From: Patescibacteria group bacterium | GTDB taxonomy: Bacteria > Patescibacteriota > Microgenomatia > UBA8517 | Length of the DNA: 64,000 nt | Assembly: GCA_035291665.1 (NCBI GenBank) | Contig: DATDRP010000006.1 | Coordinates: 74,961-138,960 of the forward strand | Reading direction: 5' to 3' | In this document: piece by piece, positions 4,891-19,483 of the stretch | Position numbering within the stretch: position 1 is the stretch's first letter | How the letters are laid out: every line of letters begins with the position of its first letter | The notes under the pieces: model-generated | What the model was told of the DNA's origin: nothing | The model's input: the letters and a program-made list of their open reading frames with translations, nothing else | The model's database searches: none | Made by a program: the position numbers and the translations under genes

Positions 4891-4945
4891 TTAACAAACT
4901 CCCCATAGATTTATATAATTAGCACTTGAGATATTTGAATGCTAA
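4891..4945 (+). promoter_or_regulatory. Second promoter plus CIRCE operator upstream of dnaJ
   Basis: -35-like TTAACA at 4891-4896, then a 17-nt spacer, then -10 TATAAT at 4914-4919. This overlaps CIRCE at 4919-4945: TTAGCACTT-N9-GAATGCTAA, 16/18 to the CIRCE consensus. Confidence 0.6.
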
Positions 4946-5105
4946 TTGCCGTCCTCTTAAAATCCTAGTATCCTAATATCTTAATATCATTCTGAAATAT
5001 GGTTGGAAAATCCGATTACTACGACCCCGTACTGTTCTTACTTGCTCCCAAGTACTACGTGCTTGCGTCGCAAGAGCGAAAATACGGGGCAGGCATTTCT
5101 TGACT

Positions 5106-5996
5106 ATGACAACAAAAAGTGATTATTACGATATACTCGGAATTAATAAATCCGCTTCAGCGGATGAGATAAAAAAAGCTTACAGAAAGCAAGCTCTTGA
5201 ATGGCATCCGGACAGACATAAAGATGATAAAGAAGCCGCTGAGAAACGCTTCAAAGAAGTTAATGAGGCATATCAGGTACTTTCCGATCCGAAAAAGAGA
5301 TCGGCATATGATCAATTTGGCCATCAGGCATTTGCTCCCGGTGGAGGTTTTGGCGGACAGCCTGGTACCGGACCATTCGGACAGCAATCCGGTCAGTATG
5401 GTCCTTTTACATACACTTATACAACAAACGCAGGAGGTGGAGGAAATCCCTTCTCCGGATTTGACTTCGGAGACCCTTTTGATATTTTCGAAAGCTTTTT
5501 TGGTGGGGGAAGCGGGGGATTCAGGCGTGCCCAGCAGCTTCCCCGATACAGTATAAAAATAGATTTCATGGATTCGATAAACGGAGTCGAAAAGAATGTT
5601 GAAATCGGCGGCAAAAGAAGGAAAATTAAAATCCCTCCGGGAATTGATGAAGGTTCAAGGATAAAATTTGATGACTTTATTTTATCGGTCAATATTGCTC
5701 CGCATGAAGTTTTTGAGCGTGACGGAGCGGATATTTATATGCGCTACGAGATTCCGTTTTCACTGGCAACACTCGGCGGGGAAATAGAAATTCCAACTGT
5801 AGAGACGCTTGTGAAAGTCCGTATCCGCCCCGGAACCCAATCGGGTACGATGCTTCGCCTCAGGGGGAAAGGTGCACCCAATTTACATGGACATGGCAGA
5901 GGTGATCAATATGTGAGAGTGAATATTCTGATCCCCGACAAACTATCCCGAGAACAAAGATCTGCGGTTAATGACCTGAAGAGGGAGGGATTATGA
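5106..5996 (+). CDS. dnaJ: DnaJ-like J-protein lacking the zinc-finger domain (class B/CbpA-like)
   Basis: J-domain with HPD ([33 protein letters not shown]), a G/F-rich region and the C-terminal substrate-binding domains. No cysteine anywhere, so there is no CxxCxGxG repeat. The listed ORF starts at a TTG at 5100. The ATG at 5106 gives MTTKSDYY. Confidence 0.8.
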
Positions 5997-11368: not shown

Positions 11369-12439
11369 ATGGACAATTCTTTCAAATCCGTAATTGATTC
11401 AGCAAATTCAATATTGATCCTTCTGCCGACAAAACCTTACTTTGATCAGGTCGCAGCAGGGCTTTCTCTTTATTTATCGCTTCTGCATTCGGGAAAAAGT
11501 GTATCCGTATATTCCCCCGCTCCCGCAACAGTGGAATTTAACCGCCTGATCGGGGTTGATAAAATCACAAATGAGCTCGGAAACAAGAATCTCGTCATTT
11601 CATTTCCGAACTATAATTCCTCCGATATCGAAAGAGTCAGCTATGATGTCGAGGAAGGAATATCTGTTTTGACAATCATTCCAAAATCTGATGCCGTTGC
11701 ACCTAAAAAAGATGATGTTGAGTTTTCCTACACCGGGGTATCCTCCGACACGGTTATCTTGATCGGTGGGGCAAACGAGACGCATTTTCCGAAAATTGCG
11801 GATAAGGATTTGGCAAATGCTAAAATTTACCACATTGGCACCCGCCCCTTGAGTGCCGACCCTGCAAAAAATATAATTTCTTTTTCTCAAGCTACCCCGT
11901 CGGTTTCCGAGATTGTATTTATTTTGATTAATGAATCGGCTTTAACTCTTGAACCGGATATTGCGACCAATCTTTTGATGGGGATCGAAGATGCAACCGA
12001 TAATTATCAAAGTCCCAATGTCCTTCCCGAAACATTTGAAATTACGGCAGCTTTGATTCGAAGCGGTGGCAGAAGATATGCAGGAAAAGGCCTTGATACC
12101 GGAGGTTTCCCGGATGGTGCAATTCCCCGAACCAGCGTGACACCACCTCCAACCATGCCAAGCGGCTTTGATTTCAACGATAACCCCGTTGTTGATCAAA
12201 CAATGGATGAGACGGATTTCGGTCCAACTCCTCCCATATTTGATAAACCGGGTCCTTTGTCACAGGCAACTCCTTCTGCTCAGAAAAATATTCAAAAACA
12301 AGTTTCGGATAAAAACCCCGATGAAAAAGAGGAAGATTCTTTTATGGCTGAAGAAAAACCGGATGAAACCGAAGAAATAGAAAATCCCCCATCAGACTGG
12401 CTCCAGCCGAAAATCTACCGCGGAACTTCAATGAGTTGA
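11369..12439 (+). CDS. DHH/DHHA1-like (NrnA-like) protein with degenerate catalytic motifs and a P/E-rich tail
   Basis: The scaffold PYFDQVAAGLSLYLSL aligns with the DHH motif-I region HxxPDGDAIGSALAL, but only one Asp is retained. No DHH triad is recognisable. GGANETH stands where the DHHA1 GGGH motif would be. Confidence 0.35.
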   Translation: MDNSFKSVIDSANSILILLPTKPYFDQVAAGLSLYLSLLHSGKSVSVYSPAPATVEFNRLIGVDKITNELGNKNLVISFPNYNSSDIERVSYDVEEGISVLTIIPKSDAVAPKKDDVEFSYTGVSSDTVILIGGANETHFPKIADKDLANAKIYHIGTRPLSADPAKNIISFSQATPSVSEIVFILINESALTLEPDIATNLLMGIEDATDNYQSPNVLPETFEITAALIRSGGRRYAGKGLDTGGFPDGAIPRTSVTPPPTMPSGFDFNDNPVVDQTMDETDFGPTPPIFDKPGPLSQATPSAQKNIQKQVSDKNPDEKEEDSFMAEEKPDETEEIENPPSDWLQPKIYRGTSMS

Positions 12440-15638: not shown

Positions 15639-15808
15639 AGTCCCCCGACCTTACTTTCGCACCCATTCGCGATGGAGGATAAAATTCAGTTAAGTTTTTT
15701 TATCCTATTGGAAACCTTTTACTAATTCAACTAACCAAGATGGAGGATGTTACAACAGATTTCAAGAAAACCACCGAGTCTGACTCGGTGGATGAATTGA
15801 ATTCTGAT

Positions 15809-15861
15809 ATGTCATCCTCCTTTAGAGGAAACCCCGCTCGTAAGAGCGGGGAAGATGTCAT
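15809..15861. repeat. REP-like miniature palindromic element, copy B
   Basis: ATGTCATCCTCC at 15809-15820. A small hairpin tcctc/gagga. A perfect 8-bp hairpin CCCCGCTC-GTAA-GAGCGGGG at 15832-15851 with a GNRA-type loop. It ends with AAGATGTCAT, and a T8 run follows at 15871-15878. Confidence 0.5.
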
Positions 15862-15898
15862 AGTTGATGATTTTTTTTAATGGTAAAATAATATTTAT

Positions 15899-16951
15899 AT
15901 GGTAAGTGATGCTTCACAGGAACAACTTAAGATTATTGAGGACAAGGTCAGAAATTCAAAAATTCCGGACGATTTGAGAGCGCGGATAGATCTTCGTTTG
16001 CAGCAATTGGAGCGGCTCATATTATCACCTTCTTTTTTACCGGAACTGGACAGAATCTCCCGGTACGTTGATTGGATTACAACAATCCCCTGGTATGCAA
16101 GGACTGAAGACAATTTGGACTTGACTCACGCTCAAAAAATACTGGATAAAAATCATCATGGTCTGGGAGAAATTAAGGATAGAATCCTCGAATATATTTC
16201 AATAATGAAACTTAAGCAGGAAAAGGGTGAGGGTGAAGATATTATGCGGGCGCCGGCTCTTTGTTTTGTGGGATTAGTAGGAACCGGAAAAACTACAATT
16301 GCTCTTTCGATTGCTGAAGCGCTTGGGAGAAAGTTTGTCAGAATTCCATTTGGCGGTATGGAAAACCCCTTTGATTTGAGAGGTCAGTCAAAAGTTCAAC
16401 CTGAAGCAGAACCGGGAAAAATCGTCAAAGCACTACGTTTGTCTCGAGCAAAAAATCCTGTAATTCTACTCGATGAAATCGACCGTGTTACCGATATGGG
16501 ACGCGCATCGATCATGGGAGTTTTGGTTGAGCTTTTGGATCCGGGTCAAAATCACGCTTATACCGACTATTATATTGACTATCCGGTTGACCTGTCGGAA
16601 GTATTATTTGTGGCAACCGCCAATAATACACACCATATAGCAACCGCTGTTTTGGACAGACTTGAGCCAATTTCAATGCCTTCTTATTCAGATGCGGAAA
16701 AAATTACAATAGGTAAGGATTATATGTTACCCGTAATTTTGAAGGAATCAGGTCTTCGTGAGGGGGATCTGGTGATTAACGACGATGTCTGGCCGCAAAT
16801 TGTCAGACCGCTAGGTTTTGACGCCGGGACGCGTACACTTGAACGGACAATTAAAGGAGTTGCCAGAAAAGTTGCCCGTTTAATTGTTGAAGGAAAGGGA
16901 GATAAATTTATTTTAACCCCCCAGAACATAAAAGAATTCCTACCCAGGTAA
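15899..16951 (+). CDS. Lon-derived AAA+ ATPase lacking both the LON N-domain and the S16 peptidase domain
   Basis: Aligns with Lon residues ~240-585. It has Walker A GLVGTGKTT, Walker B ILLDEIDR, sensor-1 ATANN, and arginines in DRLEP and GTRTLERTI. The ORF stops where the Lon protease domain would begin, and no protease domain is found downstream in any frame. Confidence 0.7.
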   Translation: MVSDASQEQLKIIEDKVRNSKIPDDLRARIDLRLQQLERLILSPSFLPELDRISRYVDWITTIPWYARTEDNLDLTHAQKILDKNHHGLGEIKDRILEYISIMKLKQEKGEGEDIMRAPALCFVGLVGTGKTTIALSIAEALGRKFVRIPFGGMENPFDLRGQSKVQPEAEPGKIVKALRLSRAKNPVILLDEIDRVTDMGRASIMGVLVELLDPGQNHAYTDYYIDYPVDLSEVLFVATANNTHHIATAVLDRLEPISMPSYSDAEKITIGKDYMLPVILKESGLREGDLVINDDVWPQIVRPLGFDAGTRTLERTIKGVARKVARLIVEGKGDKFILTPQNIKEFLPR

Positions 16952-17087
16952 ACAAAAGGTGTTATCATACGAATTTTTACTAATGAAGCGAATATTTACT
17001 TATTACGATTGATTCGATGAAATTTCGGTTATTATAATCTTAATTCGTAATCGTTAGTATATTAGGGAAAATTATTAACAAGCTGAA

Positions 17088-17101
17088 ACCGCATATGCGT
17101 T
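17088..17101. promoter_or_regulatory. PaaX-box-like palindrome ACCGCATATGCGTT upstream of the UDG gene
   Basis: 13/14 match to AACGCATATGCGTT found at the PaaX-like gene promoter. Lies 72 nt upstream of the start at 17173. Confidence 0.4.
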
Positions 17102-17172
17102 GAAGTTGTGTAAAAAAGGGCATAAGAAGATTGCTATCATTTATGTCATTGGTGTTTGCAGCCTGAATTATT

Positions 17173-17811
17173 ATGGGAAAACAAGAACTTCTCAATCAAT
17201 TAAAGAAAAAAATGTCAGATGATGTTACGCTACCGCTTCGGAAAGGTTCAACCCAACTTGTATTCGGAGATGGAAATCCGGACGCAAAGATCTTGTTCAT
17301 CGGCGAGGGGCCGGGTTATTGGGAAGATGTTAAAGGAATTCCCTTTGTCGGGAATGCAGGCGCCCTTTTGAACCAGATGCTCATGATGGTAAAAGTACCA
17401 AGAAAGGATGTTTTCATCACAAACGTTATTCATCATCGGGCACCGCAAAACCGCGATCCGCTTCCGGAGGAAATAAAGGCATATCAACCGTATCTTGACG
17501 AAATAATAAAAGTTATAGACCCGAAAGTTATTGTCACCTTGGGAAGATTCTCGATGGCTAAGTTTTTACCGGGTGTATTCATATCCAGTGTTCATGGTAG
17601 GGAGAAAAAAGTTCAAATTGATGGTAAAAATCGAATTATACTCCCGATGTACCATCCGGCTGCGGCGCTTCGCAATGGTGATGTAAAGCTAAAATTCAAG
17701 ATGGATTTTGAAAAATTGCCTGATATATTAAAGGAAGCGGACAAAATTGAAGAGCAGGGGGTTGTTAAGGAAAAGGACGAGGCAAAAGCTGAACAAATGA
17801 ACTTAATATAA
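17173..17811 (+). CDS. Uracil-DNA glycosylase, family 4-like, lacking all Fe-S cysteine ligands
   Basis: GEGPGYWEDVKGIPFVGNAG matches family-4 motif A. MYHPAAALRN matches motif B. There is no cysteine in the protein. Confidence 0.75.
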   Translation: MGKQELLNQLKKKMSDDVTLPLRKGSTQLVFGDGNPDAKILFIGEGPGYWEDVKGIPFVGNAGALLNQMLMMVKVPRKDVFITNVIHHRAPQNRDPLPEEIKAYQPYLDEIIKVIDPKVIVTLGRFSMAKFLPGVFISSVHGREKKVQIDGKNRIILPMYHPAAALRNGDVKLKFKMDFEKLPDILKEADKIEEQGVVKEKDEAKAEQMNLI

Positions 17812-17839: not shown

Positions 17840-19483
17840 ATGTCTTTACGATTTATTGCACTTTCAGGAACAATCAGTGTTACTGAAAATTTATACATTT
17901 ATGAAGCCGAAGGCAAAATGATGATTGTCGATTGCGGCGTGGGATTTCCCGATCTTGAGATGCACGGAGTTGATTTGGTCATACCGGATTTTTCGTATAT
18001 TTTGAAAAATAAAGATAAACTTTCGGGAATTTTGGTTTCCCAGGGCCACGAAGACCACATTGGGGCGCTTCCATTCCTGCTTCGCGAACTGTCAGCTCCG
18101 ATTTATGCAGCGCCATTAGTAACGGAGTTTTTAAAAGATAAGTTTGATGAATATGGAGTAAGAGGAGCCATCATTAACACTTTTAATCCGGATAACGACA
18201 AGTTCGCTATAGGTCCTTTTACAATATATCCTTTTAGGGTTACACATTCGGTACCGGATTCCTGTGGATTTGCAATTGACACACCCGAAGGGAGAATTTT
18301 TCATGTCCCTGAACATAAAATCGATCAAAACCCTGTCGGAGGGATGGGATTTGCTATAGAAAGGGCTAAGGAACTCTCGAATGGCAACAACCTTTTCCTG
18401 GCTTCCGACTGTCTCGGTTCAAATAAACCCGGGTTCACTCCGAACGAACGCCCTATCGAAGATAATATGTTTAAAGTGGCATCAAATGCCCCGCACGCTA
18501 TATTTGCCACTGCAATATCGTCAAACATCGGCCGTTTTCAGCAGATGGTGAATGTTGCACAAAAACTTGGCAGAAAAGTGGTTTTTATCGGAAGGTCGGT
18601 TCAGAAAAAGACTGAGATCGCATTCAATCTTGGACATCTGAAATATCCCAAAGGTTTGGTAGTTGAACTACGTGATGCGTACAATCTTCCCCGAAATAAG
18701 GTTTTCTATATCGTTTCCGGATGTTACGGACAAGTTGGCAGTTCTTTATATAGGATTGCGACTGGTGCTTATGAAAAGCTTGAAATTCAGGAAGGAGATA
18801 TGATGATCTTTTCAGCTGACCCGGCTCCGCCTTATTCCAAAGAAAGTGAGGATTTTGTTATTGACCAACTTATCGATTTAGGAGTGGATGTTCATTATTA
18901 CGATCTGAATGAAGGACTTTATGTATCCGGTCACGGGAGTCAGGAAGATATTACGGAGCTTTTTAGGATTGTAAATCCGAAGTATTTTATACCGATTGGA
19001 GGTTCAGTTCGCTTTATGCATGCGTATAAAAAACTGGTAGGAAAGTTCGGCAGGGACGAGCGCTTGGTTTTTACCCTCAAGCCCGGGGAAAATGTTTACT
19101 TTGAAAACGGTAATGCAAGGCGCGGGGAAAAGGTTGCCTCGAAAGAAATTCTGGTTCACGGTTTAGGTATCGGAGACATCGGAAAAGTAGTTCTTGGCGA
19201 TCGGGCAATATTAGGTAACGAGGGTTTCGTTGTTGTAATTCTAAAGTTTTCAAAGAACGGAAGACTTGTTGACTTACCTGAAATAATCTCAAGAGGTTTT
19301 GTATATGAAAAAATAGAAAAAGCACTTTTGAAAAAAGCTGTAATGGGCATCAAAAGACAAATTGATAAAAAGGCTGGCGATAAAAAACAGCTTCAGCAAA
19401 TTTCGAGGGAATATCTGGAGAGATTCTTCTACCAAAAAACCGGCCGGCGTCCCATGGTTCTTCCTGTCGCAGTTGAAATGTAA
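17840..19483 (+). CDS. rnj: Ribonuclease J (metallo-beta-lactamase / beta-CASP)
   Basis: MBL fold with the GHEDHIGALPFLL motif, a beta-CASP region and a C-terminal domain. 547 aa. The first His of HxHxDH reads Gln (SQGHEDH). Confidence 0.85.
   Translation: MSLRFIALSGTISVTENLYIYEAEGKMMIVDCGVGFPDLEMHGVDLVIPDFSYILKNKDKLSGILVSQGHEDHIGALPFLLRELSAPIYAAPLVTEFLKDKFDEYGVRGAIINTFNPDNDKFAIGPFTIYPFRVTHSVPDSCGFAIDTPEGRIFHVPEHKIDQNPVGGMGFAIERAKELSNGNNLFLASDCLGSNKPGFTPNERPIEDNMFKVASNAPHAIFATAISSNIGRFQQMVNVAQKLGRKVVFIGRSVQKKTEIAFNLGHLKYPKGLVVELRDAYNLPRNKVFYIVSGCYGQVGSSLYRIATGAYEKLEIQEGDMMIFSADPAPPYSKESEDFVIDQLIDLGVDVHYYDLNEGLYVSGHGSQEDITELFRIVNPKYFIPIGGSVRFMHAYKKLVGKFGRDERLVFTLKPGENVYFENGNARRGEKVASKEILVHGLGIGDIGKVVLGDRAILGNEGFVVVILKFSKNGRLVDLPEIISRGFVYEKIEKALLKKAVMGIKRQIDKKAGDKKQLQQISREYLERFFYQKTGRRPMVLPVAVEM

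Follow-up and report, generated by a model that had tools for sequence, protein, structure and literature searches.

We describe a gene for a stand-alone, Lon-derived AAA+ module in a 64,000-nucleotide stretch of DNA (hereafter the window) from contig DATDRP010000006.1 of a Patescibacteria group bacterium (assembly GCA_035291665.1). The gene, here called Lon-AAA (15899..16951, plus strand), is a complete open reading frame (ORF) with an ATG start. It encodes a 350-residue protein composed of a three-helix N-terminal region, a nucleotide-binding domain and a helical lid. We confirmed that the protein carries neither the LON N-domain nor the S16 peptidase domain, as a preliminary description made from the sequence had stated; that description proved right in every detail that could be checked by alignment and motif mapping. 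The protein belongs to a real, conserved family whose members databases already list, with names that are generic or misleading, and in which every residue of ATP hydrolysis is kept while the substrate-gripping tyrosine of Lon has been freed.

Profile searches delimit the module. In the 350-residue protein, Pfam identified only AAA (residues 121-257, E 1.8e-16) and Lon_lid (residues 282-334, E 4.3e-10; 16742..16900, plus strand), and found neither Lon_C (PF05362) nor the LON N-domain (PF02190). The NCBIfam model TIGR00763 ('endopeptidase La') matched residues 4-333 at profile positions 249-568 of 795 (E 1.8e-92), and the E. coli-type Lon model NF008053 matched residues 4-348 at positions 246-579 of 784. 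Given these alignment limits, the match starts past the N-domain and ends where the protease domain starts, bearing out both the reported alignment with Lon, from the long helix before the ATPase to the end of the AAA subdomain, and the reported stop at the S16 boundary. Scores fell below the curated whole-protein cutoffs, at 311.1 bits versus 608.05 (about half) for TIGR00763 and 229.1 bits versus 891 for NF008053. The closest solved relatives in a PDB sequence search are LonA proteins, led by B. subtilis 3M6A (E 4e-75) and followed by those of Yersinia, E. coli, Meiothermus and Thermus and by mitochondrial LONP1; the bacterial LonA entries range from E 4e-75 to 6e-66. Similarity to LonA is confined to the part of Lon that begins late in the long N-terminal helix and closes with the AAA+ lid. 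Residues 1-110 (15899..16228, plus strand) correspond to the C-terminal part of the LonA HI(CC) region, comprising the end of the long helix and the three-helix bundle; they align with E. coli Lon residues of about 248-350 and keep the Y56..W59..P64-W65 motif common to LonA.

The predicted structure agrees with a known piece of Lon. An AlphaFold2 monomer model built from 42 family sequences (mean predicted local distance difference test (pLDDT) 76.6, predicted template modelling score (pTM) 0.70) places N-terminal helices at residues 2-18, 24-38, 46-62, 75-85 and 90-108, followed by a Rossmann-like nucleotide-binding domain and a helical lid. Confidence is low in segments 164-170 (pore loop 1, pLDDT below 50), 220-227 and 248-255. 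When the model was compared with the PDB using Foldseek, the top matches were all Lon AAA+ chains, and mutual coverage was best for 6N2I, E. coli Lon 235-584 (template modelling (TM) scores 0.80/0.83; query 7-345 on chain 8-336 of 344). This fragment was obtained by limited proteolysis, comprises the C-terminal part of HI(CC) and the AAA+ module, binds ADP and forms an open helical hexamer (PMC6722904). Because its span and predicted fold match the fragment, the natural protein would represent a known stable structural unit of Lon. The boundaries of the two are nearly the same, but 6N2I was made in the laboratory from a protease whose pore loops are canonical, whereas the window protein is the product of a natural, independently evolving gene.

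The ATPase site is intact throughout the family. Residues were assigned by alignment with E. coli Lon, with E. coli roles taken from PMC6722904, and family counts are drawn from 263 members aligned on a family hidden Markov model (HMM). The Walker A motif G125-L-V-G-T-G-K131-T132 (16271..16294, plus strand), where LonA has GPPGVGKT, carries K131 at the place of E. coli K362; G125, G128, G130, K131 and T132 are invariant in 263/263 members. Equally invariant are D192 and E193 (E. coli D423 and E424) of the Walker B motif V188-I-L-L-D192-E193 (16460..16477, plus strand). The same holds for sensor-1 N242 (16622-16624; E. coli N473) and the Arg finger R254 (16658-16660; E. coli R484), which bound the segment 16622..16660 on the plus strand, and for sensor-2 R312 (16832-16834, plus strand; E. 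coli R542), inside Lon_lid. The claim that Walker A, Walker B, sensor-1 and the arginine residues are intact thus holds for all 263 members. Around these residues the nucleotide pocket differs from LonA: GPPG has become GL[VQ]G, Y-T-R-E-A-G-V-R has become L-G-[FY]-D-A-G-I-R, and in the lid a family-specific P304-L-G-F-D308 replaces LonA x-Y-T-R-E.

Both pore loops, in contrast to the canonical ones of LonA, have been rebuilt. By alignment with LonA, pore loop 1 spans R161-G-Q-S-K-V-Q167-P-E169-A-E171-P-G-K174 (16379..16420, plus strand), and in PDB alignments the segment RGQSKVQPEAEPGKIV lies opposite LonA RGHRRTY[VI]G[AS]MPG[RK][IL]I. Aligned in full, the window reads 'rgqskvqpeaepgkiv', B. 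subtilis LonA 'rghrrtyvgampgrii' and E. coli Lon 'rghrrtyigsmpgkli', so that Q167 stands opposite E. coli Tyr398, with E169 and E171 in place of Gly and Met/Leu. A tyrosine occupies the pore-1 position in 98% of canonical LonA (n=64 sequences). Among the 263 family members, position 167 is aromatic in 38 (14%) and non-aromatic in 86%, where residues of more than ten kinds occur, including H, Q, K, E, N, S, T and V. The pore-1 segment of the window was therefore described correctly as having no aromatic residue, and its loss is typical of the family, not universal. The flanking positions are held firmly: E or D at 169 in 247/263 members and E171 in 255/263. The canonical Y-[VI]-G-A-[ML]-P-G has thus become x-[PA]-[DE]-A-E-P-G, with a conserved acidic (D/E)-A-E-P-G, and the H-R-R-T ahead of the LonA tyrosine has become [QR]-S-[RK]-x. 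The pore-loop-2 region R196-V-T-D-M-G-R-A-S-I-M-G-V208 (16484..16522, plus strand) has a two-residue insertion and reads R-A-S-I for LonA R-G-D-P; across the family, the insertion recurs with R-[AS]-[SD]-[IV], versus an R-G-D-P whose G, D and P are each conserved in 97-98% of LonA. In LonA of M. taiwanensis, pore-1 Tyr397 and pore-2 Trp431 touch the translocating substrate, and both are reported to be required to degrade a test substrate (PMC8503904). Altogether, the family departs from LonA at 22 positions where LonA conservation reaches 85% or more; the two pore loops account for 8 of these and the nucleotide pocket for 6. This family-wide pattern points to strict selection on the ATPase cycle but not on the canonical substrate grip.

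The preliminary description proposed that relatives be searched for the same truncated architecture, and hundreds proved to share it. A database protein 100% identical to that of the window is titled 'AAA family ATPase [Patescibacteria group bacterium]'. The window protein is 68-100% identical to its 120 best database relatives, nearly all of which are 347-353 residues long and all of which are composed of AAA and Lon_lid only; they are named 'AAA family ATPase' or, wrongly, 'Lon protease', and come from Candidatus Woesebacteria, the Microgenomates group and the Patescibacteria group. Pfam again detects these two domains alone in relatives at 40-58% identity. A further search that started from P0148, one of these distant relatives, added 119 proteins of 342-470 residues with AAA and Lon_lid only, several from Candidatus Dojkabacteria or candidate division WS6. 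The family thereby extends to hundreds of relatives of about 340-470 residues in Woesebacteria, Levybacteria, Dojkabacteria/WS6 and other Microgenomates-type bacteria of the candidate phyla radiation (CPR). We considered whether the longer relatives carry extra domains and rejected this: their N- and C-terminal tails are neither LON-N nor Lon_C, and those of P0126, P0133, P0135, P0146, P0151 and P0161 are low-complexity sequence rich in Q, P, S and N. A scan of one genome per GTDB species, which gives a sample and not a census, returned at least 11 short-form loci (L010-L020) 39-61% identical to the window protein, including a Levybacteria metagenome-assembled genome (MAG) and several MAGs titled Patescibacteria. 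None of these 11 has Lon_C or LON-N within 10 kb. The other loci, at least 69, encode ordinary LonA with N-domain, AAA+ module and protease domain from many phyla, with no CPR genome among the matches listed.

The family appears to have a single, old origin. In a neighbour-joining tree of the common region, all 74 sampled short proteins fell on one side of a branch (length 0.17), apart from 64 canonical LonA, and the mean distance within the family was 0.80 versus 0.78 among the same 64 LonA; from this split and this divergence we infer one ancient event. The sequences thus indicate an old family, restricted to Microgenomates-type CPR bacteria, that descended from LonA with loss of the N-terminal substrate-binding and S16 domains. 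No model dedicated to it came up in Pfam or NCBIfam, and full-text literature searches returned no paper that treats a Lon lacking its protease or the Lon of CPR/Patescibacteria.

A short Lon-like gene could instead be what is left of a full-length lon gene in decay, or could have been produced from one by a frameshift or an error of assembly; databases do contain Lon fragments cut off at contig ends (P0194, P0196 and P0230 among them). We searched for traces of the missing domains with custom HMMs, one for the protease domain (from 64 full-length Lons) and one for the N-domain (from 58), applied to all stop-to-stop ORFs of at least 40 residues in six frames of the 64-kb window. No remnant of either domain was found there, the best E values being 1.6 for the protease domain and 1.1 for the N-domain, which upholds the earlier statement that the downstream DNA has no protease remnant. 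In 20 other distinct loci, HMM and Pfam searches likewise found no Lon_C or LON-N remnant within 6-10 kb of the gene. At least nine contigs, drawn from several data sources and up to 606 kb long, carry the identical protein. Hundreds of orthologues share the same ends, with a mean column identity of 76% over 42 sequences, and the catalytic residues show no sign of decay in any member counted. An exhaustive HMMER search through 1.84 billion representative proteins gave full-length Lons at no more than 41-42% identity, and the closest came from non-CPR MAGs of Clostridiales and Anaerolineales, so there is no close full-length paralogue of which the gene could be a fragment. Neither a frameshift hiding a protease domain nor a full-length source gene was found, and we regard a remnant or artefact as refuted, its probability being negligible. 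Matches that had seemed to combine an N-domain and AAA without a protease (P0194, P0196, P0197, P0230 and P0253) were set aside as contig- or transcript-truncated canonical Lons.

As the preliminary description had also proposed, we compared the protein with LonA, LonB, LonC and BrxL, and placed it as LonA-derived and none of the other three. With LonA (for example 3M6A and 6U5Z; MEROPS S16A) it shares the three-helix bundle, nucleotide-binding domain, Lon_lid, Walker A and B, sensor-1, Arg finger and sensor-2. LonA, however, has an N-domain and an S16 Ser-Lys peptidase domain, both absent here, and a pore-1 Tyr and pore-2 G-D-P, whereas in the family the Tyr position is unconstrained, loop 1 is acidic, two residues are inserted and G-D-P is lost. 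Of five features that define LonA, only the AAA+ module is present; the N-domain, protease domain, pore-1 aromatic and a score above cutoff are lacking, so the protein should be neither classified under Lon protease nor given that name. Membership of the classical AAA+ proteins of the HCLR clade is indicated by the Pfam AAA match, the fold match to Lon AAA+ rings and the invariant R254, with an oligomer that is predicted only. Like HslU and ClpX, single-ring AAA+ proteins of the same clade, it stands alone with no fused peptidase; unlike them, it showed no aromatic GYVG pore loop or docking element, and no dedicated peptidase partner within 6-10 kb in 21 loci. LonB has a transmembrane insertion in its AAA+ module and an S16 domain, and the window protein has neither: no LonB-type model stood among the NCBIfam matches listed (25 of 26 at E<=1), and the modelled secondary structure shows no inserted hydrophobic hairpin. 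LonC (for example that of Meiothermus taiwanensis) is, as here, a Lon derivative minus one of two enzymatic activities, and PMC3391209 and PMC13069640 describe a chaperone-like role for it. It is a mirror image, retaining the protease without ATPase activity, whereas the window family retains the ATPase motifs without the protease. LonC did not appear among PDB sequence matches at E<=1e-10. A relation to BrxL or other Lon-like defence proteins was rejected, with no PADLOC BrxL match at E<=0.01, a generic AAA match (DolB, 2.4e-6) as the best hit and housekeeping genes as neighbours. In the representative protein library, the matches with the highest scores (P0121-P0124, P0128, P0130 and similar) were 1000-1700 residues long and carried Lon-type AAA modules in tandem, two or three per chain. 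One of them, P0121 (Candidatus Dependentiae, 1113 residues), ends in a single Lon_C after three AAA+Lon_lid modules, which makes for an unusual multi-ring Lon architecture.

We read the protein as an ATP-hydrolysing, ring-forming Lon derivative that would neither degrade nor processively thread its clients, but would bind, release or remodel them in a chaperone-like or regulatory capacity, and we hold this reading at about even confidence. Because the trans-acting Arg finger is invariant, a Lon-like ring would be expected to assemble, and its intact ATPase motifs suggest that it would hydrolyse ATP. With no protease domain, the protein itself could degrade nothing. Processive threading of unfolded polypeptides seems improbable, since the pore-1 tyrosine is no longer selected and both pore loops are rebuilt. 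ATP-driven conformational cycling would then serve client binding and release or remodelling, and the conserved acidic pore loop 1 possibly hints at basic clients. An ATP-binding but perhaps non-translocating ATPase had been suggested before, and the invariant ATPase residues, variable position 167 and rebuilt loops of the family strengthen that suggestion; the regulatory or adaptor role proposed along with it is putative. Neighbouring genes offer a weak chaperone link: chaperone genes lie within 10 kb in four arrangements, namely groES-groEL, from which the gene is divergent and which it adjoins (L017 and L020), groES-groEL 4-5 kb downstream (WS6-type loci), dnaJ (L091) and dnaK-dnaJ upstream (Woesebacteria). 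Several observations weigh against this reading. With Phe or Tyr at the pore-1 position, 14% of members may still be able to thread to some extent. A ring without the protease domain is a prediction: our model is of a monomer, and the E. coli fragment packs in crystals as an open helix. Changes around Walker A (GPPG to GL[VQ]G) and in the sensor-2 loop may give ATPase kinetics different from those of Lon. Finally, no CIRCE heat-shock element precedes the Lon-AAA gene in the window.

The retained ATPase could alternatively be half of a split two-component protease, its ring docking on a separate peptidase such as a stand-alone S16 protein, ClpP, HslV or another. Lon shares its AAA+ clade with HslU and ClpX, which dock on HslV and ClpP in just this way, and both the full conservation of the ATPase motifs (263/263) and the aromatic pore-1 residue of a minority of members would suit such a motor. 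Yet across 21 distinct loci we found no Lon_C-like sequence and no recurrent peptidase gene within 6-10 kb, and constraint on the grip residues, which would have to feed a chamber, is relaxed in 86% of members, with both pore loops rebuilt. The lid motif P-L-G-[FY]-D appears only superficially like the ClpP-docking IGF/LGF, sitting as it does in the Y-T-R-E loop beside sensor-2 and not in a surface docking loop. We consider this arrangement quite unlikely.

A nucleic-acid-linked role, in which the protein would work with the family-4 uracil-DNA glycosylase (UDG) or with PNPase/RNase J in loading, releasing or remodelling proteins on DNA or RNA, draws on the gene neighbourhood. UDG directly follows the gene in 9/21 distinct loci with at least five different flanking contexts, and in L008, L010, L091 and L092 stop and start codons overlap by 1-4 nucleotides; pnp lies directly upstream in 9/21 loci, rnj lies within one or two genes downstream in 10/21, and canonical Lon binds DNA. 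Against this, UDG is missing from the locus in 12/21, among them Levybacteria and every one of the four WS6-type loci, the pnp...rnj-ftsK order seems to be backbone synteny passed down by descent, the window gene is set off by 260- and 221-nucleotide spacers with promoter-like sites of its own, and the pore loop is acidic, not basic. The E. coli segment 'arSKvKKdl' (SKVKK), a putative DNA-binding lysine patch, aligns with 'arTEdNLdl' (TEDNL) in the window. Such a role seems to us unlikely. We would likewise place at the doubtful end a Lon-derived ring with a new, specific job, whether an acidic loop acting on basic clients, joint work with UDG, whose gene is often translationally coupled to it, or a non-S16 peptidase partner. 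If true, a Lon ring acting with UDG might, for example, use ATP to release a protein bound to DNA or RNA, or to recycle it independently of turnover, and a non-S16 partner would make a new two-component protease in CPR bacteria.

Returning to the non-degradative ring that we favour, the family amounts to a natural motor-only Lon lineage that is as diverse internally as the sampled bacterial LonA. It offers a natural experiment on the capacities of a Lon AAA+ ring that lacks both proteolysis and the canonical pore loops. As PMC9569914 presents them, the Lon subfamilies described so far (A, B, C and the recent LonBA) all carry a protease domain on a single chain. The gene is conserved and apparently a core gene of Microgenomates-type CPR bacteria, whose proteostasis machinery has barely been studied. 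There is also a database correction to be made, as many members are named 'Lon protease' or 'ATP-dependent Lon protease' though unable to be proteases. Judged from its sequence, the protein is not a categorically new system, and the function that we propose is read from conservation.

In the window, the gene order is nusA-infB-(356-residue DHH-like ORF)-(109-residue ORF, minus strand)-rpsO-pnp-[Lon-AAA]-udg-rnj-ftsK, with hrcA?-grpE-dnaK-dnaJ further upstream. As described earlier, Lon-AAA lies upstream of a cysteine-free UDG of family-4 type (17173..17811, plus strand), which carries GEGPG and HPAAAL motifs, and of RNase J (17840-19483), which comes after it. The same order occurs in relatives at about 70% identity and in many GTDB loci at 50-55%; several of the latter have no udg, leaving the gene directly between pnp and rnj. 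Elsewhere the surroundings change. In the WS6-type loci L090, L093, L094 and L095 the gene follows yidC-jag-rplY, with ftsA-x-groES-groEL a few kb downstream in three. In L091 it stands in VIT1-[gene]-udg, followed by the convergent dnaJ; in L092 a divergent MarR gene precedes [gene]-udg-ftsA-x-ftsK; and in L010 sufS/nifU-like genes precede [gene]-udg. The neighbourhood argument therefore stands in part: UDG is the only neighbour to recur across otherwise different contexts and the most persistent one, often with overlapping codons, but the pnp...rnj-ftsK order is Microgenomates backbone synteny that is gone in more distant members. A similar pnpA...rnjB...spoIIIE order is found in Bacillus subtilis.

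The gene is probably its own transcription unit in the window genome, as suggested by the spacers on both sides and by promoter-like sites before it and before udg. Consensus scans of the 260-nucleotide spacer after pnp (15639..15898) found two perfect GC-rich hairpins (15771-15791 and 15832-15851) and a promoter-like TTGATG-17-AATAAT that ends 6 nucleotides ahead of the Lon-AAA ATG. Because of this position, and because no Shine-Dalgarno sequence was seen on reading the bases upstream of the ATG, the mRNA may be leaderless. The T-runs of the two hairpins lie on the minus-strand side, and one gene caller placed a 46-residue acidic ORF in this spacer. Since the spacer measures only 40-197 nucleotides in relatives versus 260 in the window, its hairpins and promoter-like elements are not conserved. 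The downstream spacer (16952..17172) comprises 221 AT-rich nucleotides, and a consensus scan located a promoter-like TTGATT-18-TATAAT at 17009-17038, before the UDG gene. An Rfam scan of the 64-kb window, flanking spacers included, gave no family at gathering score and hence no tRNA, rRNA, riboswitch or known leader.

Other features of these loci deserve brief mention. The UDGs of the window and related loci share GE[AG]PG and HPAxxL motifs; they contain no cysteine in the window, 0-1 in six related loci (L004, L006, L008, L010, L014 and L019) and 6-7 in L091 and L092. As the cysteine-rich forms are in the most distant loci, the ligands of the Fe-S cluster were seemingly lost within the lineage. 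The 356-residue ORF between infB and rpsO (11369-12439) has no Pfam match on record and matches the infB-adjoining DHH protein of L091 (phmmer E 2e-9); it probably encodes a divergent DHH/NrnA-like phosphoesterase. CIRCE-like inverted repeats, TTAGCACTC-N9-GAGTGCTAA, occur at 1039-1065 and 4919-4945 with two mismatches each (0.01 expected by chance) and precede ORF 1156-1890 and the DnaJ ORF at 5100-5996, which suggests HrcA-type heat-shock control of the dnaK cluster in the window genome. We rejected CIRCE control of Lon-AAA itself, with no such repeat visible in the groES/Lon-AAA spacers of L017 and L020 either. Lastly, the MAGs of L011-L016 and L020 (CAYIUF01, CAZERI01, CAYIBX01, CAYSMC01, CAZGFG01, CAYVKP01 and CAZOSM01) are titled 'uncultured Gammaproteobacteria' or 'Pseudomonadales', and most of them show the Microgenomates-type order nusA-infB-x-rpsO-pnp-LonAAA-rnj-ftsK, while their large contigs are of CPR-like size (486-650 kb); the taxonomic labels of these records are probably wrong.

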